DNA of 64,000 nucleotides. Source: a virus. The notes beneath the pieces were generated by a model that saw nothing but the letters and a program-made list of their open reading frames with translations, was not told the DNA's origin and ran no database searches. Of the stretch, positions 6,215-63,733 are shown piece by piece. The translations under genes and the position numbers were made by a program. The first letter of the stretch is position 1; every line of letters begins with the position of its first letter. Where the stretch lies: UHGV virus genome UHGV-1351982; one strand, written 5' to 3'.

Positions 6215-7178
6215 TGTAAAAGACTTTATCAAACGTTGTCAAGAAGCGTACTACCAGGGAATGAGTCTTATTTCCGATGAAGAATATGATCGTCTGATTA
6301 AAAGATTCCCGTTAGAGGAAGAAATCGGGCCGAAAGGTGATATCCCTCATTTGTATCGTATGTATTCTTTACAGAAAGTCTATTACGATCGTGGTGATAA
6401 AGCTCCATTTAACCCATTAGGTCAGGTTGAAACTGATAAGTTAGATGGTTGTGCGATTTCTCTATTATATATTAATGGTGAATTTGTTCAAGCGTTAACT
6501 CGTGGTAACGGTATTCTAGGGAATGATGTAACGCATAACGTTAAGATGCTGAACATTCCTAAAACTATTTCCCAAAGAGTACCAACTCAAATCACTGGTG
6601 AAGTTCTCATTACTAAAGAAGTAGAGAACAAACGTAACTACGCTTCGGGTGCTATTAACCTGAAAGATAGTGATGATTTCATACAACGTATTGGTGAAGG
6701 TGGTTTAATCTTCGTTGCATATGGTATCCAGTGTTCAGCGGAAACAGTCGGTATTACAGAAGCCTATTTAAAAGATATGCTTTGGCTAGAGAATGAGAAC
6801 TTCTTGACAGTTGTTAATGTTCGTTCCTTTTTTAAATGGATTCCGACGGACGGTAAAGTTGTTCGTATTAACGACAACAATAAATTCTTCCGTGAAGGTT
6901 GGACTAATAAATTTCCTCGTGGTGCATTTGCTATTAAAGAGGATGAAGAAGGCGAAATTACCACACTTGTTAAAGTTGAATGGCAAGTAGGGGCTTCTGG
7001 TAAAGTAACTCCAGTTGGTTATTTCGAGCCGGTGATTATTGATGATGCCACAATTGTTAAAGCAACTCTTAATAACGTTGATTATATTAACGCTCTCGAT
7101 TTAGAGATCGGTTGCCAGATTCGAGTGATTCGTGCTGGTGGTGTAATCCCTTGTATAGTAGAGCGAGTATACGACTAA
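6198..7178 (+). CDS. NAD-dependent DNA ligase, adenylation-domain subunit (ligase subunit A)
   Basis: 326 aa; KxDG adenylation motif (ETDKLDGCAIS); followed by a separate ORF carrying the Zn-finger/BRCT part; split ligase as recalled for T5. Exact start (TTG 6198 or ATG 6207) uncertain. Confidence 0.8.
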   Translation: MQTMNNVKDFIKRCQEAYYQGMSLISDEEYDRLIKRFPLEEEIGPKGDIPHLYRMYSLQKVYYDRGDKAPFNPLGQVETDKLDGCAISLLYINGEFVQALTRGNGILGNDVTHNVKMLNIPKTISQRVPTQITGEVLITKEVENKRNYASGAINLKDSDDFIQRIGEGGLIFVAYGIQCSAETVGITEAYLKDMLWLENENFLTVVNVRSFFKWIPTDGKVVRINDNNKFFREGWTNKFPRGAFAIKEDEEGEITTLVKVEWQVGASGKVTPVGYFEPVIIDDATIVKATLNNVDYINALDLEIGCQIRVIRAGGVIPCIVERVYD

Positions 7179-7380: not shown

Positions 7381-8160
7381 ATGAAAATCGAAATTCCAAC
7401 ACAATGTCCCTCTTGTGGTTCTAAGCTAGATCTTGTCAACGGGCAATTATTCTGTAGGAATAAGTCCAACTGTCCAGCGCAATCAAGTAAGTTAATCGAG
7501 AACTTCTGCACAAAAATGAAGTTAAAGGGCTTTGGCCCGAAAACTATTGAGAAGCTGGAGCTGACTAAGATCTCAGAACTGTTTTACCTGACCGAAGAAG
7601 ATTTGGTCGGAGCTGTGGGTAGCAAGGTTGCCGCTAAATTGATTAGCGAGTTAAATACTAAGGTTCGCGGAGACATTGACTTTGGTTCAGTTCTCGGTTC
7701 TTTAGGAATTCCTCTTATTGGAGAGGTTGCAGCAAAGAAACTGTCCCAAAATTGCACTAGCTTCCACGATGTGAAGGCTGACGGCAAGGCTGGAGAAAAT
7801 TACAAAACCTGGCTAAATTCCCCACAAGGCAAGGATGTTATTGAATTACCGTGGAAATTCTCAACAGGTATTCGAGGTGCTAAAGCGGATATCATCATTA
7901 CAGATGATTTAGTTGCCCAGCCAAATGGAATCACGGTCTGTATTACCGGATCTTTGCAAGATTTTGCAAATCGAACGGATGCAACAAACTATTTAGAAAG
8001 TCTAGGATATACGGTTAAGAAGTCCGTTACCAAAGACGTCAAATACCTAATCTGTGAGGATGAATCAAAACGTTCTTCCTCATCTTATAAGAAAGCCGAA
8101 ACGAATGGGATAGAAATCCTGTCGATTAAAGAACTATTGGAGAAAAATAATAATGTCTAA
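7381..8160 (+). CDS. NAD-dependent DNA ligase, C-terminal subunit (Zn finger / HhH / BRCT-like)
   Basis: Track ORF 7378-8160, ATG at 7381 after AAGGAAG; Cys4 motif (CPSCGS...CRNKSNCPAQ); own promoter upstream. Confidence 0.75.
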   Translation: MKIEIPTQCPSCGSKLDLVNGQLFCRNKSNCPAQSSKLIENFCTKMKLKGFGPKTIEKLELTKISELFYLTEEDLVGAVGSKVAAKLISELNTKVRGDIDFGSVLGSLGIPLIGEVAAKKLSQNCTSFHDVKADGKAGENYKTWLNSPQGKDVIELPWKFSTGIRGAKADIIITDDLVAQPNGITVCITGSLQDFANRTDATNYLESLGYTVKKSVTKDVKYLICEDESKRSSSSYKKAETNGIEILSIKELLEKNNNV

Positions 8161-47391: not shown

Positions 47392-48126
47392 TTAGGCAAC
47401 TTTTAATTTATCAATGAATTGTTGCGGTGTGGTACTATATTCCGCGCGTTCTTCCTCGGTCATACCTTCCCAACACATTTTTAAACGTTCGGCTAGGAAT
47501 TGATAATCGTTATCATCATCAAGCGATTCATCAATAAAGGTTTCACCGATCAATGTTACGCCGATTGATAGGATATCGTTAACGGCTTGAGCATCCAGCG
47601 TTTTAAATCCAGCACTTGCCGCCGCTGATAATACACCTTTATGATCATCAATCATTGTAAAATCAGCATTAGGATATAGCTGTTTAAACAGTTCAAAGTA
47701 ATAAGATTTATATACAGCGTCTTTACTGTGGTATATTTCGCTAACCTTATTTGCATCAAAGTATTTATGTAATGTATCGCGGGAAAATACGCGAATATTA
47801 CTATTTCCGCGCCCTCGCAAGCCTTGTTTGCGTAAATAAAAATAATCGCTTTTAGACATTAGGCGCGCGGTACAAATAATATTTAAAGTATTTGCATCAT
47901 TCATACATTGGCGCATATATTCAACCAATGGCAATAAAGAATCCTGCATAATTAAATCATGCTTGCAGGCTTCGCGGGAATATTTATTTAAATCTAAATT
48001 CCCATTATCATCAAAACAAGGCCCGACACGGTGCATTGAGTTAATGATTGTACCGTCTAAATCCCAAATCATAACGCGGGAAATATGCGGGAAAGTGCGG
48101 GTAATATTCATGTTGACTTGATTCAT
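47392..48126 (-). CDS. dmp: 5'-deoxyribonucleotidase, HAD-like (T5 Dmp-like)
   Basis: 244 aa; HAD motif I (VMIWDLDGTI); pre-early gene neighbourhood with A1/A2 homologues. Confidence 0.7.
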   Translation of the reverse strand: MNQVNMNITRTFPHISRVMIWDLDGTIINSMHRVGPCFDDNGNLDLNKYSREACKHDLIMQDSLLPLVEYMRQCMNDANTLNIICTARLMSKSDYFYLRKQGLRGRGNSNIRVFSRDTLHKYFDANKVSEIYHSKDAVYKSYYFELFKQLYPNADFTMIDDHKGVLSAAASAGFKTLDAQAVNDILSIGVTLIGETFIDESLDDDNDYQFLAERLKMCWEGMTEEERAEYSTTPQQFIDKLKVA

Positions 48127-48969: not shown

Positions 48970-50634
48970 TTATGCAAAGAATTTACCGTTCTTAAAGTCA
49001 ATCAATGTTCTTTGACCGTTTGCATAGGTAATTAAATGCGTTTGCGTCCAGCTTGACGCGCCCACGTTGTAGCCCATATCAAGGGAACCAGCAACGCCAG
49101 CGGTATAAACGCCGCCGTAAATGCTAGCCGTATGAGTATGACCAGTGTTAAGGCGTCCCAACTTTTTAAACTGCTTAGGATTGCCCCGACTGCCGTTAAT
49201 GCCATTGTGACCATGTACGCCGCATTCAATGCCAGCGATTTTAAACGACTGGTCAGTAGTCAGGAAAATAGCGTTAAATTCGCAACCTGCGACACTACGC
49301 AAGGCGTAATCTAGCACGTTAAAAGTATCATCCTTTTCAGCAATAGCGGCGTATATAGCAGCGTTTAGACGGTGATACAATTCCGCGTTTGCGGGATCGT
49401 CTTTAATGTTAGCGTTACGATCATCTAACCAGCGGGATAAAGCTAAATCATGGTTAGATTCAACAATGATTGTTTGAGAGAAATCACGCTCCATTGATTC
49501 TAATACGCGTCCAGTGTCGATAAGATCATCTAGAACCTTGTCACGTCCTGCGGCGTACTGTTTAGCAAGGAATACACCACTAGCGCGGTTGTGATGGTTA
49601 CGCGATGTAAAATCATGCACATCATGAATAAACTGATATTTAGGCTTGAGAATATCAAGCAAGCTGTTTTCACTAGCCCATGAAGCAACGGCGCATTCAT
49701 CATCTAATTTTTCGGCGTGAATATCACCATATTGCAAGCCTAGAACATGATCGGACGTTTCAAAACATCCGGTAGGCATAGCGCAAACATTCAAATCATA
49801 AAACATTCCGCTTTCGTCCATCGTTTCAAGCTGACGAACAAAAAATTCGCCGTCGTCGTCAAATTCTACCAGCAAAGCGCCGAAATTATGTAAAGCCTCG
49901 GCCTTTTGTCCTGCCTTTTGCTGGATATAGTTTTTAAGCGTAGCCGTTCCGGTTGAATACATACGGCGCACTACTTCACCTTTTAACGCTGGCACACTTT
50001 CAGCGGTAATTTTAGCGTGACCAATTGCCAGACCTTCAATATTTAAAGCCGTGGCGGTTTCTGCGAATCCTGAAAGCGGATAGTCTGCCGTTGGTAACAC
50101 GTTAATTTCAGCCATGAAAGCAAAACGGCGATTATTTAAAAATACGTTTTTCTCGCAAATATATTTATTAAATGCGGGATCGTATTTAATGCCTTCGTTA
50201 CCTTCTCCATTCTGGAAGCCGTTTTTATTGTAAATGAATTTACTAACCAGCAATTCACCGCCGATATATTCAGCGAATTTTTCCAGACTTGCTAAAAAGT
50301 TTTTATGCGGGAAAGTATTATTTTGAATCGACGTTAGAATAAAACGGCGACCGGATTTAACTTCCCACTGTTCCACGGTACTAGAAACAATTCCCGCCGC
50401 TTCGGGGCGATCATCATTTTTAATCGCCTTTTCAGCTTTTGCCGCTTTCGGTTTTGCTGGCTTATTTGCTTCCAACCAATCGCAAATTGCGGTTGAATGT
50501 TTCGTTGTATCGTAAACAGCTTTTGATATATCGTCGCAAACTTCCAGCTTAGTAGCGCGTAAACGTTTACCGTAGAAATTAAAATCAGCGGCAAGTTTAA
50601 CGATCTGGGCTTGTTTTTCTGCGGAAATATTCAT
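48970..50634 (-). CDS. A1: A1-like pre-early protein, metallophosphoesterase fold
   Basis: 554 aa (T5 A1 recalled as ~556 aa); calcineurin-type motifs (SDH, GDIH, ESNHD, GHTHT). Confidence 0.8.
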   Translation of the reverse strand: MNISAEKQAQIVKLAADFNFYGKRLRATKLEVCDDISKAVYDTTKHSTAICDWLEANKPAKPKAAKAEKAIKNDDRPEAAGIVSSTVEQWEVKSGRRFILTSIQNNTFPHKNFLASLEKFAEYIGGELLVSKFIYNKNGFQNGEGNEGIKYDPAFNKYICEKNVFLNNRRFAFMAEINVLPTADYPLSGFAETATALNIEGLAIGHAKITAESVPALKGEVVRRMYSTGTATLKNYIQQKAGQKAEALHNFGALLVEFDDDGEFFVRQLETMDESGMFYDLNVCAMPTGCFETSDHVLGLQYGDIHAEKLDDECAVASWASENSLLDILKPKYQFIHDVHDFTSRNHHNRASGVFLAKQYAAGRDKVLDDLIDTGRVLESMERDFSQTIIVESNHDLALSRWLDDRNANIKDDPANAELYHRLNAAIYAAIAEKDDTFNVLDYALRSVAGCEFNAIFLTTDQSFKIAGIECGVHGHNGINGSRGNPKQFKKLGRLNTGHTHTASIYGGVYTAGVAGSLDMGYNVGASSWTQTHLITYANGQRTLIDFKNGKFFA

Positions 50635-51018: not shown

Positions 51019-51435
51019 TTATTCACCTGCGGCCTGTTTTACTTCCTCCGCTACGCCTAACAATTGCGCTACGGCGTCCAGCGTTTCCAGTTTTGCACTT
51101 TCCAGACTTGCCAAATCGTCGGCATCTTTTACAATGCCGCTATCAATGGCATGTTTAGCAATGACGCGCACATAGTGAGCTTTACGGACAGAGCTACCGC
51201 CGCCAACTTTACGCGGTTTATCGCTTTTCTGATAGGCTTTTGCACTGGCCAATTTAGAACGTACAGAAACAGGGGACGCAGCGCCAACGGCGGCGGCAAT
51301 TTCTTTTAAGCCGTCACTATTCGCAAACTCAATCCCGCTTTTAGCAACCATTTCAGAGTACATAGAAACAGCTTTTTCGGTGTTTTCTTCGTTCCAAGAG
51401 AATTTTGCGGTTTTTTCGGTTTTAACGTTAGACAT
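51019..51435 (-). CDS. A2: A2-like pre-early protein (putative DNA-binding)
   Basis: 138 aa; immediately upstream of A1 homologue in transcript order; size consistent with T5 A2. Confidence 0.6.
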   Translation of the reverse strand: MSNVKTEKTAKFSWNEENTEKAVSMYSEMVAKSGIEFANSDGLKEIAAAVGAASPVSVRSKLASAKAYQKSDKPRKVGGGSSVRKAHYVRVIAKHAIDSGIVKDADDLASLESAKLETLDAVAQLLGVAEEVKQAAGE

Positions 51436-53014: not shown

Positions 53015-53261
53015 TAGAATGGTAGCAGTAACAACCGCAATCAAATTTAAGCGGCCTAGAACGCGCTACACGGCGTTTTCTCACTGCTACCCTTATTATA
53101 ATAAAGCCTTGTGTACGCTTACAGAGAGCTAGAAATAGAAAACGCGCGGTTATCATAAAAACAGGCAGTAGGCAAGGAATAAAAAACCTTTTCTTTTTTC
53201 TTGCCCATAGTGAACAAATATCTATATCATTCACTCACCGATTAACGAGGGAGGCAAAGAA

Positions 53262-54281
53262 ATGTCTACTGTAAGAATTGCAGTGCCAGCAAACGCAACT
53301 ATTGTTAAAGGTAGTTTGCGCAACCTGCTAGATGGTAGTAGTGCGGCAAGTATTCAGCACACCGCTACTATTGTAGAAAAGATTCACGATGAAATTTTAG
53401 ACAATAATGATACTCATTATTCAGTTGATGATTTCACGCTATTACTAGACCAGACAAGGGCGCTAGTAATTTTCAACCGTGATTATCACATTTTCCGTAA
53501 TAGTCGGGGAACTGATATTGATTTTATCATTGTTGGTTATAGTGAGTCTCATAGTGGTTACATTGCGCGATTATATAACGTGCAAGAAAAGGAGCAGGTA
53601 ACAGCAACAAAAGTAAATAATATCCGGCTGGATAGTGTCGGATCGTTATTAAATAGTATCTGGCGTGAATTATCCTCAAGCTATAAAGGTGCGGATAGTG
53701 ACGCAATCGAAACAACTGGCGTATTGTGTTTTGAAAAGTCAACGGGTAACATGTTGATCCCTAGCGATTATTTAGGGTATGGGAATGAATCAAACGTTGC
53801 AAACGCTGGATTTACACTTTTCCCGCTTGACAATGTAACAAAACAGGCTGTAAACTCTCAAACTTCAAGCGCAATTGCGCAAACTACTGAAAATAAAGGA
53901 AATAACACTATGTCTAAAGTAACCGCTATCGTTGCCGCTAATAAATCCGCCGCCGCTACCGCTGCAAAACTGGAAGCGGGTAAAGTAGCACTAACTCAGC
54001 TTACAAAAGTAGCGGCTAAAGCCCTGCCTTCTGGTATGGCTGGCATGTTCGCTAAACAGTATTTAGATACTCCGGTCGGGCGCGTTGTTGTTGCCAACTT
54101 GTTAAATCTGGCAATCGAACAATACGCACCGAATAACCAGAAAGCGCGAATTGTTGCTAAAGCCGCAATGGATGCCGCAATGCTGGAAGTGGTACAGAGT
54201 TTCAATATTTCTGAAATGATCGACAAGGCAATCGAGGGAATCAACATTGATGCTTTGACTGCTAATATTTCAGAAGAGTAA
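53262..54281 (+). CDS. hypothetical pre-early protein
   Basis: 339 aa; GAGGGAGG RBS; Ala-rich C-terminal half; intrinsic terminator downstream. Confidence 0.6.
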   Translation: MSTVRIAVPANATIVKGSLRNLLDGSSAASIQHTATIVEKIHDEILDNNDTHYSVDDFTLLLDQTRALVIFNRDYHIFRNSRGTDIDFIIVGYSESHSGYIARLYNVQEKEQVTATKVNNIRLDSVGSLLNSIWRELSSSYKGADSDAIETTGVLCFEKSTGNMLIPSDYLGYGNESNVANAGFTLFPLDNVTKQAVNSQTSSAIAQTTENKGNNTMSKVTAIVAANKSAAATAAKLEAGKVALTQLTKVAAKALPSGMAGMFAKQYLDTPVGRVVVANLLNLAIEQYAPNNQKARIVAKAAMDAAMLEVVQSFNISEMIDKAIEGINIDALTANISEE

Positions 54282-54289
54282 TAATAACA

Positions 54290-54325
54290 AGCGGGAATTA
54301 ATTTTCCCGTTTTCTTCCCTTTTAG
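54290..54325 (+). terminator. intrinsic terminator
   Basis: Hairpin CGGGAA-TTAATT-TTCCCG followed by TTTTCTTCCCTTTT. Confidence 0.65.
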
Positions 54326-54339
54326 TTAGGAGACTAATT

Positions 54340-54831
54340 ATGTTTGGTAACAGAAATTATGGCAACCCTATTGAAGCACGATCCCTTAATCATGACGCAA
54401 TTGTATTCACTCATGCGTCTACCGGTTATTGTGGATCAGATGGGAATGATTATCATTTCGTTCCCGCTGGTGACGATATTGATGATCTATGTAATGAGGC
54501 AGGTTATGAAAATGCTTGCTCTTATGGTCTAGAAGTTATTGAAGTAGACGACGGCGAATATGAGGATAATGATAATATTGAATGCTCCGCTTATCATTAT
54601 CAGTTAAGTGAATCAGGTTGTTATATTGGCGGCGGCGATCCTATTAATTCCATCACTGAAATAATTATTGAAAATGGTGGCGTTTCGCTGAATGGTAACA
54701 AGGCGTTACTATATGCAAACCGATTAAAGCAACTTGTATATATTCCTGATGGGAAAGAATGGGAAGAATACAACGTTCTAATTGCAGAATTGAAAAGCTG
54801 TTTCGGCGTGGAAGTGGTAGAAATAGTCTAA
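54340..54831 (+). CDS. strongly acidic protein (candidate DNA mimic / anti-restriction)
   Basis: 163 aa; roughly 30 Asp+Glu against about 7 Lys+Arg, several Cys; AGGAG RBS; own terminator. Confidence 0.6.
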   Translation: MFGNRNYGNPIEARSLNHDAIVFTHASTGYCGSDGNDYHFVPAGDDIDDLCNEAGYENACSYGLEVIEVDDGEYEDNDNIECSAYHYQLSESGCYIGGGDPINSITEIIIENGGVSLNGNKALLYANRLKQLVYIPDGKEWEEYNVLIAELKSCFGVEVVEIV

Positions 54832-54845
54832 TGTAAAGTTTTGTA

Positions 54846-54875
54846 AAGGTCGCCCTAATCGGCGGCCTTTTTTGT
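54846..54875 (+). terminator. intrinsic terminator
   Basis: Hairpin GGTCGCC-CTAAT-CGGCGGCC followed by TTTTTTG. Confidence 0.65.
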
Positions 54876-54938
54876 TATAATGCCTTTACACCGAAACGGT
54901 GGATTGAAAATTTTCCCTGATTTCTAGGAGGCGTTAAA

Positions 54939-55169
54939 ATGGTTGCTTTCTCTTCTTCTGACTCCCTTTTCACTGGTAAAGGTTGGGTATCTAATCGCTG
55001 GATCATTGATCAAATGGTTTCGGAATTTGGGATTGGTAAAACTTATGTTACCATTCAGGCGCTTTATGATAATGACAAGATTGACCAGCAAACCGCCGGA
55101 TTTTTGCTGGATACGCTGAAAGCGGAACATTGCACTAAAAAGCAAGCGGCAAAAATTGTTTTAATGTAA
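54939..55169 (+). CDS. hypothetical protein
   Basis: 76 aa; TAGGAGG RBS 7 nt upstream. Confidence 0.55.
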   Translation: MVAFSSSDSLFTGKGWVSNRWIIDQMVSEFGIGKTYVTIQALYDNDKIDQQTAGFLLDTLKAEHCTKKQAAKIVLM

Positions 55170-55544: not shown

Positions 55545-55892
55545 ATGGTAATTTATGAGGGCAATCGTTTTGTTGCTAATTGCCGTCCGGCATTGTTAGC
55601 AAACTATTTAAATCAGCTTTCACCAGTTTATAAAGGCGTGGTTAATATCTATGAAGGCAAAGCACATTATAAAATTTCTGCCGTTGTCGCTCGCGAGCTT
55701 GCCTTTCAGTTTCTTACTTTTAACTCATGCGATATTCAGGTTATGGGTGAGCCATTAGTCGCAGAAAATGAAAATGAATTTATTGACATTTTCCGCAAAG
55801 TATGTACAGAGCGCCTGATTATGAAGGGCGCGTATATTCAATCAACCGCTGAAAGTATTGAAACAGCGTTTCGAAAAATTGTAAATGAATAG
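55545..55892 (+). CDS. hypothetical protein
   Basis: 115 aa; TAGGAGG RBS. Confidence 0.55.
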   Translation: MVIYEGNRFVANCRPALLANYLNQLSPVYKGVVNIYEGKAHYKISAVVARELAFQFLTFNSCDIQVMGEPLVAENENEFIDIFRKVCTERLIMKGAYIQSTAESIETAFRKIVNE

Positions 55893-56358: not shown

Positions 56359-56378
56359 TACTGTATAAATATACAGTA
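56359..56378. promoter_or_regulatory. LexA-type SOS-box-like palindrome (TACTGTATAAATATACAGTA)
   Basis: Near-perfect match to the LexA consensus TACTGTATATATATACAGTA; second copy, in inverted module. Confidence 0.55.
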
Positions 56379-56398
56379 GAATAATCTGTTGATAAGTC

Positions 56399-56468
56399 TG
56401 TGGATAACGCCTCAAAATCGCTAGGATTTTGTCAAGTCAAATCGTGCTGTTAATAAACCTGTGGATAA
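56399..56468. promoter_or_regulatory. DnaA boxes in inverse orientation (TGTGGATAA at 56399-56407 and 56460-56468)
   Basis: Two perfect reverse-complement DnaA 9-mers; with the LexA-like box they form an inverted copy of the 52.9-53.0 kb module. Confidence 0.6.
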
Positions 56469-56499
56469 CTTAAATAACAGTGTTTCTCACTTCGCTTTG

Positions 56500-56640
56500 T
56501 AAATGCGAGTCATTCTCATTATCATTCGCGTTTCCCTTCCTAAATGCAAATCATTCTCATTCGTATTCCGGTAGTCAAATGATAACTATTCTCATTCGCA
56601 TTCAACTTCTCAAATGCGAATCAATCTCATTATCATTCGC
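56500..56640. repeat. four tandem ~30-bp dyad-symmetric iteron-like repeats
   Basis: AAATGC(G/A)A(G/A)TCATTCTCATT(ATCATTCGC) units at about 56500, 56542, 56575 and 56610, each with an internal GCGA..TCATTCGC inverted repeat. Confidence 0.6.
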
Positions 56641-56680
56641 ATTTCGGCAGGCAGGGCATTTTCTATTTGCCCTGCGCTTT

Positions 56681-57281
56681 TGTGCAAATCCGACATTTGC
56701 CCCCACGGATTACGTGCCAGCGTGTATGTGCGAATCCGACAATTTTTGGTAGTGTGCAAATCCGACCCGAAATATTTTTATAGTGTGCGAATCCGACAAT
56801 GAATTTCCCTAAAAACTCCAGCAATCTCGAACTGCGATCGAATCCTGTGGGATATGCGCAAATCCGACATGAGTTTGCTAGGAGACAGATTTATGGTTTC
56901 AGGAATATTTTTGTGACTTCGATGAGAGGGTGTGTAATTGTGTGAGTTTGGGGAGAAGTGCGAATCCGATGAGGTTTTGGGAGGAACTATGAGAGGAGCA
57001 GCGGTGTTGGTGCTTTAGCACCGATTTGCTGCGTTTTTGGGGATAATGTGAGATGTTTTGGGATAATTGGGCGTGGGGTGAGATAAAGTGAAATTTTATT
57101 AGTTAAATGGGGCAAAATCGCTTGACAAGTGAAAATTCCTGTGTCCCTAAAAACTCAGGCAATCATGGGCCTTCGGCCCGAAATAATGCTGCTATTTTCA
57201 GGAGATTATGTGCTCATGAAAACTTAGGCAATTGTGCAAATCCGACCAGTTTTTAAACTTATATCAGTGTGCAAATCCGAT
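56681..57281. repeat. eight dispersed copies of the 13-mer GTGCRAATCCGA(C/T)
   Basis: Copies at about 56681, 56727, 56754, 56784, 56855, 56958, 57232 and 57266, in a region with no convincing ORF. Confidence 0.65.
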
Positions 57282-57817
57282 AGCAATTTCCAGAAATGTG
57301 TTTTCAAAAAATGTTGTCTAGAAATAACCGCCCTCCCCATAACCGCCCTGTATTAACCGCCTATTGCTGGAGTTTCTAGGAACATGAAAACCGCCTGAGT
57401 TAATGGGAGTTTTCCTAGAAACTTAGGAGTCTAGAAGAAAGTGTTGTGCCATCCTAGCAGATGAGCGGCAACAGGTGTATCATCTTGAACGTTAATTTAT
57501 CTATTTAACAGTATTAGTTTTTATATAAGTATAAGATCCCCAAGGGTTCTCATATAGAGCTTTGCCCCCGCCAGAAGGTCTCGTGATGTTTCTAGTAATC
57601 TTTATTAAATTACTTGTTGACTTGTCCTGTCGCTCCGTAACCTACGCTACAAGTCAGTAATTTAAGATTCCTGAACCACCACACCTTCTGTGTGGCAACT
57701 CTAAATGGTTAATTCTATTAACTCATAGAGTTATGATAACATACATTTAGCTATCTGTCAACGAGAGTTTGTATCTGAGTCTCGGTACAGGTATTGTGCA
57801 CCGAGACATGCAGGATC

Positions 57818-60639: not shown

Positions 60640-61023
60640 TTAGTGAAGTTGCTTGCCGTTTAAGGCCATATCAGCAGTTTCCAGAAGAGATTCGGTAATC
60701 TCACGAGAAACTAGATATTCATCAATTGAATGGCGGCGTTTATAGGCATAAGCATTAACAATCAGATCTAGAGCACCGAGAACATCATGAACAGTTACTT
60801 CTTCATCATTATCTAGCTCTTCTTGGGTGATCTCAATTAATTGGCCCACTGCCATTAAAAGCCCAAGAATATCTGCTGTTTCACCTGCCACCAGCGGATT
60901 AGCACATCCTACTGTAAGATCGAAAGCATGATTGACAATTGACTGTCCATCAACGCTTCCTTCTTCAATCTGCTTCTCCAACTGCTTCATCTGCTCTAGC
61001 ACTGGATTTTTCTTTTGTGTCAT
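60640..61023 (-). CDS. hypothetical acidic protein
   Basis: Track ORF 60640-61089; ATG at 61023 preceded by AGGAAA; overlaps the 3' end of the upstream gene. Confidence 0.45.
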   Translation of the reverse strand: MTQKKNPVLEQMKQLEKQIEEGSVDGQSIVNHAFDLTVGCANPLVAGETADILGLLMAVGQLIEITQEELDNDEEVTVHDVLGALDLIVNAYAYKRRHSIDEYLVSREITESLLETADMALNGKQLH

Positions 61024-63301: not shown

Positions 63302-63733
63302 TTACCAATCGTTAACGAAACCTGAGAACTCAGAAGCAAATACTAGCTCAAATTTCTCAGCAATTTCAGGATGATCTTTACAGATCAGTTCGATACACTT
63401 CTCAGGTTCCATACCATCTTCTTCGGGGTCACCATAATACTTGTCCCAAAGATCGTCAGGAATAACTTGCTCAGCTAGATCTTGGAAGTTCACTAACTGA
63501 TAGCGTGGAGTATCCTCATTAATAAAGATCTCATGCAATTCCTCAGATACTTCTCCTTTATAATCGGAAATTAGCAGAGCATTGCAAGCAAAACATTCCC
63601 ACATCATCAAACGCTCAGAAATCGGGTTAGATTTGTCTTGAACATAGGACTGAAAGACTGCCTTAAAAGTAGCTTTAACTTGCTCAAACTTATCTGCTGT
63701 TGCGATTAAAAGTGCTTTATCAATCTTTTGCAT
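63302..63733 (-). CDS. hypothetical acidic protein
   Basis: 143 aa ORF with a conserved early-type promoter upstream on the - strand. Confidence 0.5.
   Translation of the reverse strand: MQKIDKALLIATADKFEQVKATFKAVFQSYVQDKSNPISERLMMWECFACNALLISDYKGEVSEELHEIFINEDTPRYQLVNFQDLAEQVIPDDLWDKYYGDPEEDGMEPEKCIELICKDHPEIAEKFELVFASEFSGFVNDW

Follow-up and report, generated by a model that had tools for sequence, protein, structure and literature searches.

A strongly acidic, accessory pre-early protein of an Epseptimavirus as a candidate anti-defence binder that phage T5 lacks

Ocr (gp0.3) of phage T7, an all-helical, banana-shaped dimer, inhibits type I restriction and BREX by mimicking DNA. Ocr and two proteins of phage T5, Ptr1 and Ptr2, are highly acidic and are sensed by PARIS (10.1101/2024.01.02.573894), and unrelated heterologous DNA mimics rescue T5 from the PUA-Cal-HAD defence system (PMC12871103). 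T5 and phage BF23 are both broadly insensitive to type I, II and III restriction-modification (R-M) systems (PMC10644984; PMC8594841; PMC13250531), and the gene behind the restriction insensitivity of T5 is still unassigned (PMC10644984; bioRxiv 10.1101/866236), as the initial annotation of the locus described here also stated. Here, a 64,000-nucleotide stretch of the virus genome UHGV-1351982 (the window) was analyzed, with a focus on the gene at 54340..54831 (+ strand), which encodes a strongly acidic protein of 163 aa and had been proposed as a pre-early DNA mimic or anti-restriction factor that might account for the T5 trait. Overall, family-wide features of the protein make an anti-defence role plausible, and the gene is not the factor of classical T5 restriction insensitivity.

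The position of the open reading frame (ORF) and its charge counts were exactly as first reported. With 30 Asp+Glu against 7 Lys+Arg, an isoelectric point (pI) of 4.05 and a net charge of about -23, the protein is more acidic than the product of any other of the 58 window ORFs that reach 100 aa. Residues 15-120 contain 22 Asp/Glu and no Lys/Arg at all, and charges are balanced in the C-terminal 43 residues. Negative charge is also a property of the family, as all 48 recovered members have a net charge between -10 and -33, and the part aligned to residues 15-120 carries -13 to -23 in 31 of 31 diverse members. In this 31-sequence alignment, 60% or more of the sequences have an acidic residue in each of eleven columns (D37, D46, D48, E53, E57, E65, D70, D71, D76, D78 and E111); the high, family-conserved net negative charge that is a feature of the DNA-mimic class is present here. 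The acidic run singled out in the initial annotation, EVIEVDDGEYEDNDNIE (residues 65-81, nt 54532-54582), largely coincides with a loop (residues 62-80) that is the most variable, insertion/deletion (indel)-prone and lowest-confidence part of the protein, and in 12 of the 31 members (~40%) a CxxC...CxxC insert, with Pfam zinc-ribbon matches below threshold only, replaces the acidic loop. The window allele has no zinc ribbon.

The protein matched PHROG 6741 ("unknown function") over its full length with an E-value of 1.3e-48 (residues 5-163 aligned to positions 4-164 of the 164-position profile); distant family members matched this profile as well. This family, already catalogued as hypothetical and without a solved-structure relative, includes BF23_00011, bas27_0186, bas29_0191 and bas31_0175, which share the same genomic slot and the same fold. 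Scans of the protein against Pfam, NCBIfam and PADLOC gave no match even at E<=10, a profile search against PDB sequences returned noise only (best E 0.28, to ribose-5-phosphate isomerase), and a PDB fold search with the predicted model found no solved-structure relative. An exhaustive hidden Markov model (HMM) search of 1.84 billion representative proteins yielded only 31 clusters at E<=1e-3, and all members of visible origin are from T5-like phages (Demerecviridae). Their hosts include Salmonella, Escherichia, Klebsiella, Pectobacterium, Pantoea and Vibrio, and further members come from metagenomic contigs with dmp/A1/A2 cassettes; no homologue was found by tblastn in 72,556 plasmid records. 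The longer members P0037, P0043 and P0031 contain no informative fused domains, only the sub-threshold zinc-ribbon matches of the loop insert. Two of these distant members (P0037, 261 aa; P0043, 241 aa) have C-terminal extensions of ~80-100 residues, one of which matches phrog_21299 (unknown function). A literature search found no paper that characterises the PHROG 6741 family, and none of the literature on the T5.015/Ung nickase, Rad (an anti-retron protein encoded in the tRNA region), PARIS triggers, DNA mimics that counter PUA-Cal-HAD, OLD, daunorubicin with Bas33 or the T5 pre-early deletion study concerns it.

Structure prediction, which had been suggested as a check, produced a confident alpha/beta fold. 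AlphaFold2 modeled the window allele from a 20-sequence alignment with a mean per-residue confidence (predicted local distance difference test, pLDDT) of 81 and a predicted template modelling score (pTM) of 0.76, the N-terminal part being free of Lys and Arg and the C-terminal part charge-balanced. A zinc-ribbon allele was modeled with the same topology (pLDDT 88.8, pTM 0.80) and a confidently structured insert, and BFVD models of homologues with 22-29% identity superpose at a template modelling (TM) score of about 0.77. At least 90% conservation in the 31-sequence alignment is reached by T28, G29, G32, A55, A59 and G98 only, all of them small residues, and no invariant polar or catalytic residue was found in this alignment. 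Because only Thr, Gly and Ala are nearly invariant, a scaffold or binding protein is favoured over an enzyme. The ORF is a genuine coding gene under purifying selection, given a ratio of nonsynonymous to synonymous substitution rates (dN/dS) of 0.13 (Nei-Gojobori dS 0.256, dN 0.034) against the allele of Obesumbacterium phage Ob_P at 93% nt identity, and a full-length homologue is kept in more than 260 phage records.

The window is not T5. The acidic ORF shares 99.6% nt identity with Salmonella phages 1-29, NBSal002 and EH3 and E. coli phage NG_S8, all of the genus Epseptimavirus (Demerecviridae, Markadamsvirinae), and the source is a Salmonella phage 1-29-like Epseptimavirus. The features of the locus and of the surrounding cassette are as follows.

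54340..54831, + strand: gene of the 163-aa acidic protein (ATG start; PHROG 6741 family)
54523..54579, + strand: variable acidic loop, codons 62-80 (8 D/E in 19 residues; pLDDT about 60-64)
54328..54332, + strand: Shine-Dalgarno sequence AGGAG, 7 nt 5' of the acidic-gene ATG (from sequence)
54289..54312, + strand: weak hairpin between the DUF7566 gene and the acidic gene (terminator scan; 9 pairs, interrupted T tract)
54845..54876, + strand: Rho-independent terminator ending the acidic gene (10-bp stem with 6 GC pairs, then a T-run)
54873..54881, + strand: extended -10-like element TGTTATAAT ahead of the next gene (from sequence)
53201..53230, + strand: sigma-70-like promoter of the rightward pre-early operon (scan; TTGCCC, 18 nt spacer, TATCAT)
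53262..54281, + strand: gene of a 339-aa DUF7566 protein, the T5.011 homologue (Pfam PF24450, E 4e-124; phrog_4263)
54939..55169, + strand: gene of the 76-aa T5.012 homologue, phrog_5145 (conserved flank 3' of the variable slot; 88% identical to BF23)
47392-48126, - strand: dmp, first-step-transfer (FST) cassette
48970-50634, - strand: A1, FST cassette
51019-51435, - strand: A2, FST cassette

The DUF7566 gene, the acidic gene, the T5.012 homologue and small ORFs form a rightward operon that is divergent from dmp, A1 and A2. Its promoter lies at the position of the promoter annotated 5' of T5.011 in T5, and, according to Annor et al. 2026 (bioRxiv 10.64898/2026.04.02.716235), a promoter 5' of gene 011 has been experimentally characterised. 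The acidic gene has its own ribosome-binding site and terminator, as initially annotated, and the BF23 annotation places a predicted pre-early promoter at the position of the -10-like element. Past the operon, the non-coding region 56370-57400 contains several repeat families; GTGCAAATCCGAC, for example, occurs five to six times, and repeats of 27-51 nt lie at 56484-56645. Two perfect DnaA boxes (TGTGGATAA) are found at 56399-56407 and 56460-56468. In its sequence the region resembles the injection-stop-signal region described for T5 and BF23. The acidic gene lies inside the annotated terminal repeat of BF23, chee24, Kenya-K16 and KpGranit, and phage records that retain both terminal repeats contain it in two copies. 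The label "pre-early" is therefore justified by the position in the cassette (synteny with dmp, A1, A2 and the repeats) and by the terminal-repeat annotation of relatives. From this location in FST DNA, the protein is most likely made within minutes of the start of infection, alongside the remaining pre-early proteins and while the rest of the genome is still outside the cell.

Two more markedly acidic ORFs were seen in the early block past the repeats (63302-63733, - strand, 143 aa, pI 4.26; 60640-61023, - strand, 127 aa, pI 4.4). Separately, an annotation discrepancy was noticed among the neighbouring pre-early genes of T5, where the RefSeq record (L002 8086-8644) attaches the product name "endonuclease nicking abasic sites generated by host Ung" to T5.014 (70 aa) and calls T5.015 hypothetical, whereas T5.015 has been named in the literature as the Ung-site nickase. 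Pfam Phage_T5_AP_Endonuclease matches ~115-127-aa proteins at the T5.015 position in relatives (L041 8928-9290; window 55545-55892), and by this comparison the RefSeq label looks shifted by one gene.

In T5 (NC_005859), T5.011 ends at 7505 and T5.012 starts at 7624, with no gene between them. The T5 sequence joins the stop codon of T5.011 (gagTAATAATtaacc) straight to TAATGTAAAGTTTTGTAAAGGTCGCC, a sequence that BF23 and the window use as stop codon plus terminator of the acidic gene. T5 differs by a clean indel of ~560 bp that removes the acidic gene, and the weak hairpin at 54289..54312 is part of the segment missing from T5 in comparison with BF23. The terminator at 54845..54876 is kept in T5, where it is annotated as the terminator after T5.011; it is the terminator of the missing acidic gene. 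A search with the family HMM over all stop-to-stop ORFs of the entire T5 genome found no member (best E 0.09, which equals the window background); as a control, the true acidic gene in the window scored 2e-61.

Restriction phenotypes described for relatives bear directly on the proposed link to T5. BF23 carries the acidic gene (BF23_00011) and T5 does not, although both are restriction-insensitive. Other carriers are Bas31 (bas31_0175), Bas27 TrudiGerster (bas27_0186) and Bas29 SuperGirl (bas29_0191), with full-length genes in the latter two. Epseptimaviruses, including Bas27 and Bas29, are "generally more sensitive to R-M systems", and within the panel BREX sensitivity is highest for Bas27 (PMC10644984; PMC8594841; PMC13250531); Bas31 is restricted by the type I system EcoR124II through sites in its FST DNA (PMC10644984). 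Because T5 lacks the gene and the restriction-sensitive phages Bas27 and Bas29 have it, the acidic gene is neither necessary nor sufficient for T5-type restriction insensitivity; the sensitive carriers are a confounded comparison, as sites in FST DNA are exposed before any pre-early protein exists, and a narrower anti-restriction activity would be compatible with their phenotype. The connection to classical T5 restriction insensitivity drawn in the initial annotation has to be abandoned, also in view of the many natural isolates that lack the gene.

Across 24 distinct T5-like contigs from IMG/VR, the acidic gene was present in 10 and missing in 14, and 12 of the 14 non-carriers, T5 included, have an identical 120-122-bp junction. 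By tblastn, the family was counted in roughly 255 of ~442 Markadamsvirinae records. The gene is accessory and missing from about half of the relatives; laboratory loss was rejected as the sole cause of its absence from T5, since 13 other contigs also lack it. The slot between DUF7566/T5.011 and T5.012 (window 54282-54938; T5 L002 7506-7623) is either empty, occupied by the acidic gene, or occupied by the acidic gene plus an ORF of 102-113 aa. This additional ORF (phrog_16959, unknown function), found between DUF7566 and the acidic gene at L033 3040-3348, L007 3044-3385 and L043 (Bas31) 869-1186, is a second accessory gene of the same slot. In the Klebsiella phage KpGranit (L039), another acidic protein (6324-6827; 167 aa, pI 4.4) is encoded between DUF7566 and the family member. 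It was rejected as a second paralogue, as the family HMM gave no match, and acidic pre-early proteins of different families thus cluster at the KpGranit slot.

Alleles at this slot are highly diverged. Between the window and BF23, A1 is 93% and the 012 homologue 88% identical, versus 47% for the DUF7566 protein and 50% for the acidic protein, in which residues 1-84 are 35% and residues 85-163 63% identical. The window allele is rare (7 records at >=93% nt identity over full length versus 229 for the BF23-type allele) and more acidic than the BF23 allele (net charge -23 versus -15). Its 3' half matches otherwise different alleles (GSW6, STG2 and TrudiGerster), which points to a mosaic. A protein that meets a variable host partner would be expected to show this combination of presence/absence variation, deeply diverged alleles that are nonetheless under purifying selection, and recombination at a domain boundary.

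Following this reasoning, we tentatively prefer, at a little less than an even chance, the explanation that the acidic protein has no enzymatic activity and acts as a binder or decoy against a host defence protein that varies. We infer a binding function because the invariant residues are small, the conserved trait is a scaffold with an acidic N-terminal part, and the loop is often a zinc ribbon. The protein would combine an alpha/beta scaffold with a strongly negative, nearly Lys/Arg-free N-terminal part, and would occupy the basic nucleic-acid-binding surface of a strain-variable host protein, most likely a defence nuclease or sensor. It would thereby act as an electrostatic decoy, following the Ocr/ArdA-like principle with an unrelated fold. 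The sensing of Ptr1 and Ptr2 by PARIS and the rescue of T5 from PUA-Cal-HAD by heterologous mimics are precedents for this class among T5-like phages. Several points weigh against this reading. Many acidic phage proteins are not DNA mimics, and the densest acidic segment is the low-confidence, indel-prone loop and not a rigid array, with an ordered zinc ribbon in its place in other alleles. The restriction of Bas27, Bas29 and Bas31, and the BREX sensitivity of Bas27 in particular, indicate no obvious extra protection in carriers. Adjacency to DUF7566 could mean a phage-internal role, and no characterising paper was found for any PHROG 6741 member. A more far-reaching version, which we consider rather unlikely, would make the family a structurally new class of phage anti-defence decoy, in which an acidic face free of Lys/Arg and a zinc ribbon of ancestral origin are mounted on an alpha/beta scaffold. 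Such a decoy would enter with the first 8% of the genome and neutralise a defence system not yet linked to T5-like phages, maybe as a two-gene module with the toxic DUF7566 protein.

Adjacency to DUF7566 also forms the basis of an alternative in which the acidic protein would be a phage-internal partner of DUF7566/T5.011, such as a chaperone, inhibitor, immunity factor or specificity subunit. Genomic context was inspected in seven lineages, and in these the acidic gene lies in FST DNA 3' of DUF7566/T5.011, directly so in most, with one small ORF in between in some relatives (in KpGranit, the unrelated 167-aa ORF). The order of DUF7566 followed by the acidic gene is kept from Markadamsvirinae to Sugarlandvirus and metagenomic relatives, and even the members P0048 and P0049 (23-30% identical), whose cassette arrangement otherwise differs, are directly 3' of DUF7566. 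The acidic gene was found without DUF7566 at no locus, and the two loci without DUF7566 also lack the acidic gene. A single transcript apparently covers both genes, which are separated by no more than a weak hairpin, and both are hypervariable next to conserved A1 and 012 homologues; the divergence of the window DUF7566 protein from the BF23/T5 allele is concentrated in its N-terminal ~200 residues, with the Ala-rich C-terminal third conserved. T5.011 is toxic and nucleoid-disturbing when expressed alone and "resists functional predictions" (bioRxiv 10.64898/2026.04.02.716235). However, it is common for a locus to have DUF7566 but no acidic gene, as in T5 and 11 further contigs, and DUF7566 therefore does not need it. 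As FST gene order is generally conserved, adjacency is weak evidence, and in some phages an ORF intervenes. The alleles of both genes moreover reassort independently: L027 combines a DUF7566 protein 82% identical to that of the window with a BF23-type acidic allele at 52%, and L033 a DUF7566 protein at 71% with a very divergent acidic allele. Co-evolution with DUF7566 was consequently rejected as a strong claim, and a partnership of the two proteins appears unlikely, if still worth serious consideration.

A host-takeover factor directed at a conserved housekeeping DNA- or RNA-binding protein (e.g., RecBCD, RNA polymerase, a nucleoid protein, Ung or Dam/Dcm) would suit pre-early expression beside host shut-off functions and an acidic surface fit for nucleic-acid-binding targets. 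Host methylation is suppressed by T5-like phages through a mechanism yet to be explained (PMC10644984), and the family spans phages of Escherichia, Salmonella, Klebsiella, Pectobacterium, Pantoea and Vibrio, so the target class would have to be widespread. Yet an inhibitor with a conserved target usually varies little, and here phages that share the same hosts carry alleles of ~50% identity. T5 avoids methylation, degrades host DNA and grows normally without the gene, which about half of the relatives also lack; we regard this explanation as improbable. Less probable again is the initial proposal in its full form, in which a DNA mimic of the Ocr/ArdA kind inhibits restriction enzymes of type I (and others) and underlies T5 insensitivity. 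Family-wide negative charge (-0.14 per residue for the acidic protein versus -0.24 for T7 Ocr), pre-early timing, accessory status, fast evolution and the unassigned T5 trait are in its favour. Its T5 part is nevertheless refuted by the clean indel and the absence of a homologue from the whole T5 genome and from 14 of the 24 contigs, and among the resistant Tequintaviruses the gene is present in BF23 and Bas31 but missing from T5, while sensitive Bas27 and Bas29 carry it. Kinship with Ocr or ArdA likewise found no support: the protein did not match either Pfam family (PF08684 and PF07275) at E<=10, hhalign of the 31-sequence family profile against T7 Ocr (from NC_001604) gave a probability of 0.5% (E 0.13), and neither the PDB fold search nor the plasmid records provided a relative. 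Finally, a decaying or functionless ORF with incidental acidity, which dispensability in many relatives and the lack of an annotated function in any record might suggest, is barely credible in the face of the low dN/dS, full-length retention, a confident and reproducible fold, and motifs and charge conserved down to 23% identity.

In T5-like phages, the fate of an infection is decided by pre-early genes while the bulk of the genome is still outside the cell, and most of these genes have no known function. The slot described here offers a natural experiment, as close relatives either have or lack a ~560-bp segment at this single position and show highly diverged alleles there. This pattern is typical of counter-defence loci, and the carriers BF23, Bas31, Bas27 and Bas29 can therefore be compared directly with T5. 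Since T5 lacks the gene, an attractive answer to the question of T5 restriction insensitivity, now 45 years old, is removed. Should the acidic protein prove to be an inhibitor, the acidic decoy proteins would gain a new fold, as a structural variant of a known functional kind, and the protein might be of use when therapeutic phages of Salmonella and E. coli are selected or engineered.

Compared to known systems, the acidic protein resembles T7 Ocr in being small, very acidic (pI ~4) and encoded on the first DNA to enter the cell, and putatively in being non-enzymatic and serving an accessory anti-host function. In contrast to the all-alpha, elongated Ocr, its model is alpha/beta and has no PDB match, and no anti-restriction phenotype tracks the presence of the gene. 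ArdA is similar in length (~165 aa), in its mixed alpha/beta and strongly negative character and in early expression upon entry of the mobile element. However, there is no family similarity and the three-domain ArdA fold is not matched; ArdA belongs to conjugative plasmids and transposons, whereas all relatives of the acidic protein are in Demerecviridae phages. Ptr1 and Ptr2 are likewise highly acidic, uncharacterised proteins of T5-like phages that are possibly sensed by or aimed at host immunity, but they are encoded by T5, which has no PHROG 6741 member, and are thus not homologues; nor did the PARIS paper place them among the pre-early genes (10.1101/2024.01.02.573894). Of the DNA-mimic or anti-restriction proposal, the kinship with Ocr and ArdA has fallen away, and what stands is an acidity conserved throughout the family in an accessory gene of host-interaction-like character.

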